64,000 bases of DNA, from NCBI GenBank assembly GCA_963664115.2, contig CAXWPJ010000004.1:32001-96000 (forward strand), given 5' to 3'. The notes beneath the pieces are model-generated. The model had not been told where the DNA came from and did not search any database. It saw only the letters and a program-made list of their open reading frames with translations. The position numbers and the translations under genes were made by a program. Within the stretch, counting starts at the first letter, position 1; every line of letters starts with the position of its first letter. The stretch comes from Terriglobia bacterium (GTDB lineage: Bacteria > Acidobacteriota > Terriglobia > 20CM-2-55-15). This document shows positions 7,906-12,270 of this stretch, in pieces.

Positions 7906-8142
7906 ATGTCAGCGACAGCAACACAGACGGTCACAGGCGATGCCTTGCGAGGGGCGGAGGACCTACGGGAAGAGTTGGCCACAACCAGCAACCAACTCGT
8001 AGAACTCATGAAGCAATATCGCGACCCCGAGCGGAGTCTTGAAGAGAAGATAAGGTTGAACATCCGCCGCAGCGAGTTGGAGTCATACGCTGCCGGTTTG
8101 CGCTACGCCCTGGGCGGCGCTCCAAGGGAAGAGCGAGTCTAG
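7906..8142 (+). CDS. Small helical hypothetical protein
   Basis: GGAG RBS, 78 aa; its TAG stop is part of the CTAG flanking the IS1380. Confidence 0.6.
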   Translation: MSATATQTVTGDALRGAEDLREELATTSNQLVELMKQYRDPERSLEEKIRLNIRRSELESYAAGLRYALGGAPREERV

Positions 8143-9991
8143 GCCCTGAACAAGCGTGATTGACGAGGAAATGATAGTGCAATAAGAGCGGAAGTACCCG
8201 AAATGCCCCCTCTCCGTGCGAAAAAAACCTTGAACAGATTCTTCGGAAAAGGAGGCATTTCAGATGAACGATTATACGCGCAAGAACATGAGGAACCGCA
8301 AGCGGCGAATCGAACGTCGGCTTGGGGACCGGCATTGGACGGATCAGGTAGAGCCGATGTTTTCGGCGAGCAACATTCAGTACGAGATGGGAGAGCGGAC
8401 GCGGGGCACATCGGTTGGTGGTATCGGGACGATGCAACTGGTGGCGCGGCGGACCGGGCTGATCGAAGCCATCGACAAGGGCGTGCATGTGTTGAAGCGG
8501 CACCTGCCGTATCACGAGTCGGATCACGTGCTGAACATCGCCTACAACGCCTTGAGCGGAGGAACGTGCCTGGAAGACATCGAACTGCGGCGCAACGATG
8601 CGGTGTATCTGGATGCGCTGGGAGCGCAACGGATTCCGGATCCGACGACGGCGGGAGACTTCTGCCGGAGATTCGAGGCCGACGACGTGGAGTGTCTGAT
8701 GGAGGCAACCAATCAAGTCCGGCTCGGAGTCTGGCGACAGCAACCGGCGGCGTTTTTCGAAGAAGCGGTGTTGGACGCGGACGGGACACTGGCCGAAACC
8801 ACGGGGGAATGCAAGCAAGGGATGGACGTGGCCTACGACGGGACGTGGGGATATCACCCGCTGATGATCTCGCTGGCCAACACCGCCGAACCGCTGTATC
8901 TGGTCAATCGTAGCGGCAACCGGCCGTCGCATGAAGGAGCCGCGGTCCGGTTCGACCAAGCCATCGCATTGTGCCGGCATGCGGGGTTTCGCCAGATCCT
9001 GCTGCGCGGGGACACGGACTTCAGCCAGACCCGGCATCTGGACGGATGGGACGACCAGCAGGTGGGTTTCATATTCGGGATTGACGCGATGGCGAACCTG
9101 AAGGCCCGGGCCGATGAACTGGAGCCGCGCCAGTGGAAGCGCCTGGAACGGCCCGCGAAATACGACGTGGCGACCGAACCGCGCCAACGTCCCGACAACG
9201 TGAAGGAAGAGATCGTTCGGCAGCGCGGTTTCGACAATATCCGCTTGCAGGGTGAGGATGTGGCCGAGTTTCGGTATCGACCCGGAGCCTGCGATCGGGA
9301 CTACCGTGTCGTCGTGGTGCGGAAGAATCTGTCGGTGGCCAAAGGAGAGCAGGTGTTGTTTGACGACATCCGGTACTTCTTCTACATTACCAACCGTTCG
9401 GATCCGGCCGACCAGATTGTGATGCGTGCCAATCAACGGTGCAATCAGGAGAATCTCATTGAGCAGTTGAAGAACGGCGTTCAGGCGTTGCGGATGCCGG
9501 TCGGAGATCAGACCAGCAACTGGGCCTACATGGTGATCGCGTCACTGGCCTGGACACTGAAAGCGTGGTTTGCATTGCTGCTTCCCGAAACCGGACGTTG
9601 GGGCCAAAAATATCAGGCTGAGAAGCAAACCGTGCTGCGCATGGAGTTCAAAACCTTCTTGAACGCTTTCATGCTTGTGCCGTGCCAACTCGTGCGCACC
9701 GGGCGGCGCATTCTGTTCCGGATCCTGGCCTGGAACCGGTGGTTGCCGGTCTTGTTCCGCGGGGTGGATGTGTTGCGTCAGCCTCTGCGATGTTGACCCG
9801 ATCATGACTCTGAGCCCGGGCGATCGAGGTCCCGGTTTCTGTCAACCGTCCAACACCAGCGAGGCTGAACTGAAACAGATTCAACAGAAACTCGATACCT
9901 GGAACAGGCCATCCGGGAACGGGATTCTATGCCTCGAATTCTATCGGCGCGAACTGGGCCTCGGCGGACTGGTTATGCGCTTGTTTTGGGC
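8143..9991 (+). mobile_element. IS1380-family insertion sequence, copy 1
   Basis: Imperfect IRs (G)CCCTGAACAAGCG / CGCTTGTTTTGGG(C), CTAG on both sides (8139-8142, 9992-9995); near-identical inverted copy at 52112-53960. Confidence 0.92.
8264..9796 (+). CDS. IS1380-family DDE transposase
   Basis: VLDADGT, GYHPL, LLRGDTDF, RCNQENLIEQLK motifs; 510 aa. Confidence 0.92.
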   Translation: MNDYTRKNMRNRKRRIERRLGDRHWTDQVEPMFSASNIQYEMGERTRGTSVGGIGTMQLVARRTGLIEAIDKGVHVLKRHLPYHESDHVLNIAYNALSGGTCLEDIELRRNDAVYLDALGAQRIPDPTTAGDFCRRFEADDVECLMEATNQVRLGVWRQQPAAFFEEAVLDADGTLAETTGECKQGMDVAYDGTWGYHPLMISLANTAEPLYLVNRSGNRPSHEGAAVRFDQAIALCRHAGFRQILLRGDTDFSQTRHLDGWDDQQVGFIFGIDAMANLKARADELEPRQWKRLERPAKYDVATEPRQRPDNVKEEIVRQRGFDNIRLQGEDVAEFRYRPGACDRDYRVVVVRKNLSVAKGEQVLFDDIRYFFYITNRSDPADQIVMRANQRCNQENLIEQLKNGVQALRMPVGDQTSNWAYMVIASLAWTLKAWFALLLPETGRWGQKYQAEKQTVLRMEFKTFLNAFMLVPCQLVRTGRRILFRILAWNRWLPVLFRGVDVLRQPLRC

Positions 9992-10122
9992 CTAGATCGG
10001 GGGAAATCTCGGTGATGGTCCGCTAGATTGGCCCTTGTGATATAAGACACTCAATGAATGTTTACAACATCGAAGATTTCAGGCCAGCGAAGACCGAAGC
10101 CCCCGCTGGCCTTCGGATCGAA

Positions 10123-10395
10123 TCAGGAAGCGAGCTTCTGATTGATCTGATCACTAGTAACCAGCAGGTTGTACCATGCCGTGTTGGACGGCACGATCTC
10201 GGCGACAAGAAGCCTGTCGTTCTTGTCCATAAACCTCATCAGGTCGTTGGCTATATCAAGCGCAAGCGAAGTGCTTCTCATTAGCCATGTGGATTGCTCC
10301 ACTCGAACAGCCTTCAATTGCTGTAGCCGTTCAATCAGACCATCATAGTTCTGTCCGGGTTTTCTTAGATCGTAAGTAACTTCATAAGGTTTCAT
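10123..10395 (-). CDS. Cas2/VapD-like ferredoxin-fold small protein (standalone)
   Basis: Y-x-V-T-Y-D-L N-terminal strand with conserved Asp, RVEQSTW (compare Cas2 RxQxSVF), DxNDRLLV; AGGAA RBS; no cas genes nearby. Confidence 0.65.
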   Translation of the reverse strand: MKPYEVTYDLRKPGQNYDGLIERLQQLKAVRVEQSTWLMRSTSLALDIANDLMRFMDKNDRLLVAEIVPSNTAWYNLLVTSDQINQKLAS

Positions 10396-10472
10396 TTTCC
10401 TGTCTTCCTAATTAAAGCCCATCCGCACTAAGACCACAGCGCGATCCGGGCGAACTTCGGGTAGAGAAGAGA

Positions 10473-10502
10473 TTGACGGGATCACGCATACGGCGCTATG
10501 AT
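10473..10502 (+). promoter_or_regulatory. Putative sigma70 promoter (TTGACG-N18-TATGAT)
   Basis: 5/6 match to the -35 consensus and 5/6 match to the -10 consensus; followed by a terminator with no intervening ORF. Confidence 0.5.
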
Positions 10503-10508
10503 GGGAGA

Positions 10509-10573
10509 GTCTAATTACCATCTCCCGTCAACCTCGACGGATTTTCAAAGGTCCCCTGGCAGGGGGACCTTTT
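10509..10573 (+). ncRNA. Candidate ~65-nt small RNA, antisense to the upstream region of the Cas2/VapD-like gene
   Basis: Bounded by the promoter at 10473-10502 and the intrinsic terminator at 10547-10573; start site inferred. Confidence 0.35.
10547..10573 (+). terminator. Intrinsic terminator
   Basis: AAAGGTCCCC-TGGCAG-GGGGACCTTT hairpin ending in a T tract. Confidence 0.7.
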
Positions 10574-10646
10574 GCATTATACCCGATGTTTGTTCGGTGC
10601 TACTAATTGTGGCTAGAATTGGGCCGAACGCTACCTGTTGGGCTTT

Positions 10647-10709
10647 TTAGCTCTCGATCAATTCGTTCAGCGTCCAAACGTGATCAGTGAGTCCCGCTTC
10701 CATCGCTGG
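10647..10709 (-). pseudogene. 3' remnant of an IS1-like transposase
   Basis: Minus strand encodes PAMEAGLTDHVWTLNELIES*, similar to TPAMEAGLTDRVWTFEDI in the transposase at 32368-33252. Confidence 0.75.
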
Positions 10710-10751
10710 GGGATTCTTCCGATCATTGCGACCGTTGGCATCGCCATTTTT

Positions 10752-10883
10752 GGTAGTGTCCTAATTTCGATTCCGGGTTGAAGCACCCAGAATATACCCA
10801 GCGATTGCCGATAGAAGAGCAATTATCGCCGCGCCTTCGACCACACCCACAAACGCCAGAACTGCGCCGGTCCCCGCGATCAT
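10752..10883 (-). mobile_element. Orphan IS1-like terminal repeat with a membrane-protein fragment, cut off by IS256
   Basis: GGTAGTGTCCTAATTTC resembles the IR GGTAGTGCATCAGTTTG at 32359; hydrophobic ORF 10761-10883 (MIAGTGAVLAFVGVVEGAAIIALLSAIAGYILG...) stops inside it. Confidence 0.45.
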
Positions 10884-10885
10884 GG

Positions 10886-12270
10886 GAGTTATTGTCAAAA
10901 GTGGTGTTTAGGAGATTGATTCAAGCGGCGGCCTGATCGACTTGTGTCGCTTCGACACCATCGTTGAATTTCACTCCGATGATTACCTTGCTCAGATCAT
11001 CGAATCCTCGTAATCGTCGCCAATTGTTCTCAGCGCACTGGCCCAGTTTGAACATCATGTGCAGCATGCCATCCCGTGTCAGGCAACCTCTGGATCGCTT
11101 CGTTCGGTGTCGAATGGTGGCAAAGGTCGACTCAATGGGATTCGTCGTTCTGATGCTCTGCCAGTGCTTGGCCGGAAAGTCGTAAAAGGCCAGCAGTTCC
11201 TCTCTGTCTTTCTGCAGGCAGAGTGTGGCTTTCGGATACTTCGGTTCATAGGTTTCAATGAACAAGTCGAATGCCTTCTCGGCGTCTGCCTTCGTCTCGG
11301 CCTGCCAGATCGAGTGCAGGGCCTGTTTCGCCTTCGCCTGGACCGACTTGGGCAGGCAGTTGAGGACGTTCATGACTTTGTGCATCCAGCAACGTTGTTG
11401 ACGTGTCTCGGGATAGATTTCCTCCAGTGCGGCCCAGAACCCCATCGCACCGTCACCGATGGCCAACTTCGGAACATTCATCCCACGGGACTTCAGCTTC
11501 AACAAGACCTCGCGCCAACTCTGTGTCGATTCCCGTACACCGTCTTCGATCGCCAGGAAACGCTTCTCTCCGCGTTCATTCACGCCGATCACGACCAATG
11601 CACACAACTTGGTTTGTTCCGCCCGAAGTCCGCTGTAGATGCCGTCGGCCCAGACATAGACCCAGCGATCTGCATCCAAACGCTCCTCGCATCCGAGGCG
11701 GTACTGTTCGCCCCAAACCTGTTTCAACCGCGATACCGTGCTCGCCGACAGACCCTGCGCCTGGGGACCGACAAGAACTTTTAGGGCCTCACCCATCTCG
11801 CCGCTGGAAACGCCTTTCAAATACAACCACGGCACCGCTGCTTCCAGCGACTTCGTCTTCCGAATGTACGGTGGTACCAGGGCCGATCGGAACGTCACAG
11901 CTTCGCCCGTCTTGGCACGGACCTTCGGGATTTGGACTGTTACCGGACCCAATCCCGTCTGCAGTTCGCGTTCCGGCAGATAACCGTTGCGTACCACCCC
12001 GGCGTTTCCTGTCTCAGTTCGCCGGCCACCGTGCTGGGATAGCAGCTCTGCCAATTCGGCTTCCACTGCGCGTTGGATCAGTTGCTGTGCCCCAACTCGT
12101 AGTAGTTCTGTTACTGGATCCTCAATCGTTTCTCGACCTTCCGGTCCATTCACGTTACTCTTGCTCACAGTGGCGTATCTCCTATGGTTGCTTTGAAGTT
12201 TTGTCACAACAAATCAACCAGATACGCCGCTCTTATTCAATCCCTCAAACACCAGATTCGGTTATAACTC
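10886..12270 (-). mobile_element. IS256-family insertion sequence
   Basis: Imperfect IRs GAGTTATTGTCAAAAGTGGTGTTT / GAGTTATAACCGAATCTGGTGTTT; no matching target duplication. Confidence 0.85.
10921..12168 (-). CDS. IS256-family (mutator-type) transposase
   Basis: RNGY, YVWADGI, AIGDGAMGF, QRCWMHK, RTTNPIES motifs; GTG at 12168 with AGGAG RBS. Confidence 0.92.
   Translation of the reverse strand: MSKSNVNGPEGRETIEDPVTELLRVGAQQLIQRAVEAELAELLSQHGGRRTETGNAGVVRNGYLPERELQTGLGPVTVQIPKVRAKTGEAVTFRSALVPPYIRKTKSLEAAVPWLYLKGVSSGEMGEALKVLVGPQAQGLSASTVSRLKQVWGEQYRLGCEERLDADRWVYVWADGIYSGLRAEQTKLCALVVIGVNERGEKRFLAIEDGVRESTQSWREVLLKLKSRGMNVPKLAIGDGAMGFWAALEEIYPETRQQRCWMHKVMNVLNCLPKSVQAKAKQALHSIWQAETKADAEKAFDLFIETYEPKYPKATLCLQKDREELLAFYDFPAKHWQSIRTTNPIESTFATIRHRTKRSRGCLTRDGMLHMMFKLGQCAENNWRRLRGFDDLSKVIIGVKFNDGVEATQVDQAAA

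Follow-up and report, generated by a model that had tools for sequence, protein, structure and literature searches.

This locus raises the question of whether a small RNA transcribed opposite to the leader of a standalone Cas2-fold gene controls that gene and, if so, by which route. The gene lies in a 64,000-nucleotide stretch of a Terriglobia bacterium contig (the window) and encodes a 90-residue protein on the minus strand (10123–10395), identified from the open reading frame, a phrog_1090 match and a structural model. Together with its leader it occupies a cassette of about 890 bp between two high-copy insertion sequences. A first-pass annotation had described nested stems between an IS1-like transposase stop and the start codon, with an antisense RNA cassette embedded in them, and had proposed either an RNA-regulated nuclease toxin carried as transposon cargo or a fold-back single-stranded DNA promoter.

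The flanking elements are an insertion sequence with a DDE_Tnp_1_4 transposase (IS1380-type; 8139–9995, plus strand) and another with a Mutator-family transposase (IS256-type; 10886–12270, minus strand); genome G000 carries dozens of near-identical copies of 1857-bp and 1385-bp insertion sequences. On the downstream side of the gene, a hairpin directly 3′ of the stop codon (10089–10114, minus strand) may act as the mRNA terminator, and a sequence that we presume resembles IS1 ends (10011–10021) forms a candidate right end of an IS1-family element. On the upstream side, the transposase stop at 10647 proved to be IS1-like as annotated, but it closes only a C-terminal remnant of about 21 residues (10647–10712, minus strand). 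Longer IS1-like transposases in other parts of the genome end in matching sequence, and proteins related to the remnant match PF03400. Next to the remnant lies part of a small cassette with inverted repeats, namely its right end and a truncated membrane ORF (10752–10885, minus strand); this cassette is intact in a second genomic copy. In that intact form (L001, 7984–8345, right end corresponding to window positions 10752–10761), terminal inverted repeats and an 8-bp target duplication enclose a 91-residue membrane ORF without a Pfam family, inserted just before the IS1-like remnant; it is likely a non-autonomous IS1-family cargo cassette. Elsewhere in L001 (4575–6640), two small ORFs beside an IS5-like transposase come after a second C-terminal remnant of IS1-like type; the ORFs had no Pfam or NCBIfam match, and we take the pair to look HicB/HicA-type. 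Transposase-tail remnants seem to head several such cargo units.

The second copy of the Cas2-fold cassette (contig C9) is identical to that in the window except for two short tandem duplications of 21 and 16 nt, located near 539560 and 540080, and a similar duplication occurs elsewhere on C9. Since contigs of all three other runs compared matched the cassette without indels and agreed with the window version, the duplications in C9 are likely long-read assembly errors. Searches across the phylum, one centred on this genome and one on a genome of Acidobacteriota, hit the same two places, which makes an acidobacterial host probable.

The protein model (pLDDT 93) displayed a Cas2 ferredoxin-like fold with an Asp after strand 1, and its best structural matches were Cas2 structures (for 1zpw, Z 9.4, rmsd 2.3 and 79 aligned residues), bearing out the Cas2/VapD-like assignment; the Z score was 8.5 for BPSL1038 and 5.4 for Haemophilus influenzae VapD, so that the protein is closer to Cas2 than to VapD. 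The phrog_1090 profile matched over the full length (positions 1–88 of 90, E 1e-22), and a profile search placed the family at 2,704 clusters at 50% identity. At least 90% of 93 sequences retain Asp-9 and Ser-35, which stand at the Cas2/VapD catalytic positions. The VapD of type II systems (with VapX, VapY or VapW) and standalone Cas2-like nucleases of the BPSL1038 type have the same ferredoxin-like Cas2 fold and share the Asp at the end of strand 1 and the Ser at the strand 2–3 turn; these positions are reported to be catalytic in VapD, with the Asp needed for toxicity (PMC11980593), and in BPSL1038 (PMC10491678). The term "RNA antitoxin" is absent from the main text of the VapD paper (PMC11980593). 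The window protein had no match to Cas2 families in Pfam or NCBIfam, its relatives scored below the TIGR01573 cut-off, a PDB sequence search with the protein gave nothing useful, and Foldseek returned no match at E ≤ 0.001, although Cas2 structures ranked first.

The fold is common to this protein and CRISPR Cas2, but the accompanying genes were not found here: the genome, which is 97% complete, yielded no Cas1, no cas genes occurred among 87 scanned neighbours and, in agreement with the first-pass annotation, no array was detected in the window, where no 23-mer is present three times. No constant partner gene, such as the adjacent VapX, VapY or VapW antitoxin gene of VapD type II systems, was found around the leader-bearing genes. 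Homologues are carried by temperate phages (39 records) and plasmids (80 records), and several of six inspected phage and plasmid loci lie in lysogeny modules with short gaps upstream. In one Cereibacter plasmid (L229, 2495–5216), a Cas2-like gene stands directly upstream of nucleotidyltransferase and SAVED-domain genes in a CBASS-like set. Two loci without the leader (L032, 1067–1252; L039, 2808–2993) have a 61-residue ORF separated by 1 nt from the Cas2-like gene, a candidate protein partner. The Cas2-fold protein is likely a nuclease and a passenger of IS1/IS1595-type elements.

We then considered the DNA upstream of the gene. An AGGAAG sequence resembling a Shine–Dalgarno element (10404–10409, minus strand) precedes the start codon, and a perfect TATAAT (10576–10581, minus strand), which is accompanied by no good −35 sequence, is the likely −10 element of the mRNA promoter. 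All three annotated plus-strand arm pairs (10414/10639, 10446/10580 and 10473/10523) were located, as was the TTGACG-N18-TATGAT promoter inside them (10473–10502, plus strand; −35 at 10473–10478, −10 at 10497–10502). It is one of two promoter-like sites in 1.4 kb where 1.0 is expected by chance, so the promoter match alone means little. The annotated strong terminator was found as a GC hairpin ending in TTTT (10547–10573, plus strand) but was not listed by the terminator scanner; on the opposite strand, the same sequence would double as the 5′ hairpin of the mRNA. The antisense RNA predicted from these signals (10509–10573, plus strand; about 65 nt) folds into a 16-nt single-stranded 5′ tail, a small hairpin and the terminator hairpin. 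The region from 10396 to 10660 folded better than all of 200 dinucleotide shuffles, with a z score of −3.46 on the plus strand and −3.24 on the minus strand, and the strength of this 265-nt fold was about equal on both. The two arms of either outer stem occur together in neither predicted transcript. One RNA run from the same sample had zero coverage over the cassette and was uninformative on expression.

Comparison with homologues revealed which of these elements are conserved. From 169 fetched loci and three genome loci, we obtained 150 distinct proteins, 140 of them with 250 nt of upstream DNA. The antisense-promoter pattern, which was picked by eye from the same sequences, was present in the upstream 250 nt of 40 of these 140 homologues and absent from the other 100; by comparison, 7 had it in the sense orientation, shuffling gave 1.0, and it occurred in 4 of 130 downstream regions. 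In 35 of the 40, the pattern lay 88–135 nt before the start codon. We aligned 32 pattern-bearing leaders, excluding any whose distance or shape differed, and since RNAalifold gave no pairs on the MAFFT core alignment, their structure was set by hand from single-sequence folds. It consists of a three-way junction on the mRNA strand (10473–10531 in the window, minus strand): P1 (10531–10523/10481–10473) pairs the complement of the antisense −35 box with an upstream copy, P2 (10522–10518/10504–10500) bears a GAC loop, and P3 (10496–10484) occupies the promoter spacer. P1 and P2 were 82–86% paired across the 32 leaders, all selected by the pattern, as against 36–50% when slid; two-sided changes in P1 and P2 were seen in 74–76 cells versus 33–34 in shuffles, and none of 500 shuffles reached the observed count. 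P3 was only 55% paired in the fixed register. G-U pairs on the mRNA strand outnumbered A-C oppositions both in P1 (29 versus 16) and in P2 (17 versus 12).

In 17 of 27 leaders the upstream GC hairpin was A-rich on its 5′ side, whereas in 4 of 27 it was T-rich on its 3′ side, an asymmetry that fits an antisense terminator. The antisense RNA predicted in the homologues had a median length of 77 nt. A sense −10-like hexamer lay within 60 nt of the hairpin in 16 of 27 leaders, a count taken without a control. In a quick tree of 90 columns, all 32 labelled leaders fell in one 83-row branch, with 11 label changes needed. The outer stems were tried as a conserved feature and rejected (cognate versus swapped arms at 30 loci, p 0.018 in sense and 0.089 in antisense), and those of the window copy were outside the strongest in that test. 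Of the annotated nested stems, then, the inner junction covaries and the two outer ones show no clear conservation; on this comparative evidence, what is conserved is the inner junction in its mRNA (minus-strand) form. Three groups of differently shaped leaders (L024, L106, L109, L110 and L118; L027 and L144; L171, L174, L178 and L180) also have a GC hairpin and an antisense −35-like box and are possibly further classes of the same switch.

The leader matched no catalogued family. A search at the Rfam 15 gathering score gave no match over the leader in the window, 20 homologue loci or 9 further loci, the lone match in the window being a snoRNA (E = 6) on the end of the gene, and a nucleotide search of 60 relatives returned short matches only (E 0.03–0.08). 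In the literature searched, which comprised titles and the starts of abstracts, with supplementary motif catalogues and subscription papers outside, neither the motif nor phrog_1090 was described.

A search with a model trained on the aligned leaders showed where else the leader occurs. Over 777,661 bases of loci, strong matches fell only upstream of Cas2-like genes, and in its own genome the model found the two cassette copies only. Searches of 151, 151, 141 and 141 partly overlapping acidobacterial genomes, with matches accepted at E<1e-5, yielded six new held-out leaders, all of which kept the whole anatomy. Their downstream genes were one Cas2-like gene, two GIY-YIG-like genes (one above and one below the Pfam cut-off), one DUF1508 gene, one gene for a 42-residue basic peptide and one unknown 90-residue ORF. 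An order-wide protein search found the leader in 2 of 20 homologues, one of which was a training sequence. The proposal that the gene is transposon cargo agrees with this wider sample: a co-oriented IS1-like or IS1595-like transposase or fragment stood upstream, within the available DNA, at 12 of the 32 training loci, and an IS1-like transposase stood in front of three of the six new leaders. Since the leader fronts unrelated small genes, it is likely a portable RNA switch and not an antitoxin dedicated to the Cas2-fold protein, and the best reading is a cis-antisense translational switch on passenger genes of IS1/IS1595 elements. Together, the conserved promoter pattern, the covariation and the held-out leaders lend good support to control by the annotated antisense RNA, and a leader under antisense control probably exists.

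Weak model matches (E>1e-4) were excluded; for three of the searches, 4 of 4, 1 of 1 and 4 of 6 were inspected. Four of the loci excluded as weak (L222 and L262–L264) resemble the motif and have no clear downstream gene; in L262–L264 (1501–1586), a weak, near-identical core match is found at the same conserved position across several genomes of Bryobacterales. When viral contigs were scanned for a degenerate motif, 29 places were hit, and only the known L086 contig scored well. Basic peptides of about 40 residues without a Pfam match form a family (L257, 1287–1415, minus strand; L017, 2862–2981, plus strand; G000 contig C2, 64024–64119), one member of which lies behind the leader and another directly upstream of a Cas2-like gene.

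The anatomy suggests the following model for the switch. The mRNA would start near 10570 and fold into the 5′ hairpin, the junction P1–P3 and a further hairpin, P4 (10424–10443, minus strand), whose loop, GGUCU, complements AGACU in the loop of P2, so that the two loops could kiss. The antisense RNA is predicted to start opposite the P2 loop and to leave the P2 3′ arm uncovered; its free 5′ tail begins with the GUC that is also present in the P4 loop. This tail would therefore be a competitor for the P2 loop and, by opening P2 and P1 along their 5′ arms, would free the P2 3′ arm. The freed arm would then base-pair next to or across the ribosome-binding site, at a distance of about 100 nt, in the window through its CCCAUC with GAUGGG (10418–10423, minus strand), the alternative partner predicted when the antisense RNA is bound. 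With the arm at the ribosome site, the gene would be silent as long as the short-lived antisense RNA is made; it would come on when that RNA is missing, either after entry into a new cell or once transcription has been stopped, for instance by a phage.

Pairing of the P2 and P4 loops was better in cognate than in swapped combinations (p about 0.004); an in-register test gave 35 of 56 against 29.8 (p 0.047), and with relatives collapsed to 11 representatives, p was 0.06. The P2 3′ arm scored −8.3 against its cognate ribosome-site region, −6.8 against swapped regions (2/20000) and −6.0 against shuffled ones; this complementarity is strong in one subclade and gave p 0.25 with 11 representatives, and an unrelated control region scored 96/20000, which points to a kinship bias in the test. 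In L255, an 8-bp match between arm and start region was changed on both sides. In a folding model, binding of the RNA made the start region costlier to open in 26 of the 32 training leaders and in all six held-out ones; much of this rise is generic, since start regions that were shuffled or swapped reproduce between a half and four-fifths of it (+1.5 to +2.8 versus +3.3 for real leaders). The loop–loop contact and the anti-ribosome-site switch thus have weaker support from these comparisons, and repression of translation by the proposed route is, on the modelling, only somewhat favoured.

A rather unlikely alternative would keep the same two RNAs and have them act by activation, transcription termination or mRNA decay, tuning a passenger gene whose protein is non-toxic. 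The window copy itself leans this way: in a nested model without pseudoknots, its opening cost fell from 14.0 to 12.7 with the RNA bound, the opposite sign to the family, with −5.0 in a shorter model and a change from 5.1 to 3.8 for the region −20 to +3; the arm did switch to GAUGGG (pairing 0.00 to 0.49), with slightly better net access for the ribosome. Tuning is also consistent with leaders that precede non-nuclease genes, and with the phage homologues, which lie 48–77 nt from their upstream neighbours and, like all six inspected phage and plasmid loci, gave no match to the RNA model. This alternative is opposed by the direction modelled across the family, which is repression, by the recurrence of long arm/start-region matches with altered sequence, and by the scarcity of 5′ hairpins with a T-rich 3′ side.

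A second alternative, which fits the anatomy poorly and which we regard as improbable, is that the small RNA or the leader binds the protein and inhibits it directly in the manner of type III toxin–antitoxin or AbiF/AbiFr-like systems. A standalone nuclease-fold gene that adjoins a structured RNA and has no constant protein partner would suit such an arrangement, and the first-pass annotation had named type I/III and AbiF-like systems as ones controlled by RNA antitoxins. The same RNA, however, is also found before genes with no relation to Cas2, namely GIY-YIG, DUF1508 and peptide genes, so that the cognate specificity of type III and AbiF-like systems fails; no tandem RNA repeats lie upstream of the gene, and the conserved letters are those of the promoter boxes and the mRNA pairings.

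The annotated fold-back promoter, an Frpo-like element driving the gene from transferred single-stranded DNA, suits the anatomy poorly and is highly improbable. Sigma70 needs about 17 bp between −35 and −10, and in the Frpo geometry both boxes are duplexed at about that spacing in the folded strand. Here the −35 box lies within the P1 helix and part of the −10 box within P2, and the two strands differ little in fold strength (the sense strand better in 15 of 32 single-sequence folds), but only about 0–10 nt separate the −35 and −10 helices, the spacer is looped out as P3, the excess of G-U pairs favours an mRNA-strand RNA, an oriented terminator is kept, and the carriers are DDE elements. Least probable of all is that the region holds just an ordinary promoter facing outward and a terminator and folds by chance, which would account for the modest single-sequence promoter and fold scores but not for the fixed position, the covariation and the recovery of held-out leaders.

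Among characterized systems, the nearest in mechanism are antisense RNAs of plasmids. Inc RNA of the IncIα plasmid ColIb-P9 serves in plasmid copy control at repZ, together with a leader peptide. According to PMC8383071, this antisense RNA competes with intramolecular pairing of a leader loop, as proposed here, whereas the loop in our leader sits in a three-way junction and its loop–loop contact is moderately supported. RNAI of the staphylococcal RepA_N plasmid pSK41, as described in PMC5703833, is about 83 nt long, binds about 100 nt upstream and is proposed to induce sequestration of the ribosome site; in both systems the RNA is counter-transcribed, comparable in length, and made up of a free 5′ tail followed by two stem-loops. 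RNAI controls a replication initiator, unlike the small passenger genes on insertion sequences found here, and it has no Rfam or sequence match with our leader. As the downstream genes are Cas2-like, GIY-YIG-like, DUF1508 and others, with no rep gene among them, the leader does not belong to the copy-control RNAs (RNAI, Inc, ctRNA). The best reading, by analogy, is that it works like pSK41 RNAI or Inc/repZ and is a member of neither.

By sequence conservation, the locus has the anatomy of a type I toxin–antitoxin system, namely a cis-antisense RNA gene with its own promoter and terminator opposite the mRNA, and a small cis-antisense RNA over the 5′ leader of the gene is likewise found in SymE/SymR, RalR/RalA and hok/sok. 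SymE acts as an RNase. Both SymE and RalR are described as nuclease-type toxins (PMC1891008 and PMC4041452). In contrast to type I systems, the RNA predicted here lies clear of the ribosome site, the gene encodes a Cas2-fold protein, and the leader is common to unrelated genes; leaders in front of DUF1508, the peptide and the unknown ORF argue against a strict toxin–antitoxin role. That the locus is a toxin or defence module is a tentative proposal. Equally speculative is the specific idea of a portable RNA dead-man switch that IS1/IS1595-type elements would attach to interchangeable mini-nucleases of the Cas2-fold and GIY-YIG types, in which loss of the RNA upon phage take-over or loss of the element would unleash the nuclease.

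If the dead-man switch is true, it would give the Cas2/VapD fold its first RNA-antitoxin system and would define an abortive-infection or addiction family by its RNA, not by its protein. If the switch silences a nuclease, it would connect control by RNA with the proposal that Cas2 descends from toxins. The leader itself is a bacterial RNA motif that has not been catalogued and whose mechanism can be tested; at about 180 nt it would make a compact switch, and it offers a handle on a very large uncharacterized family of Cas2-fold proteins. Since insertion sequences appear to reuse this one riboregulator for different cargo, the RNA may be usable as bait for new defence and addiction genes.
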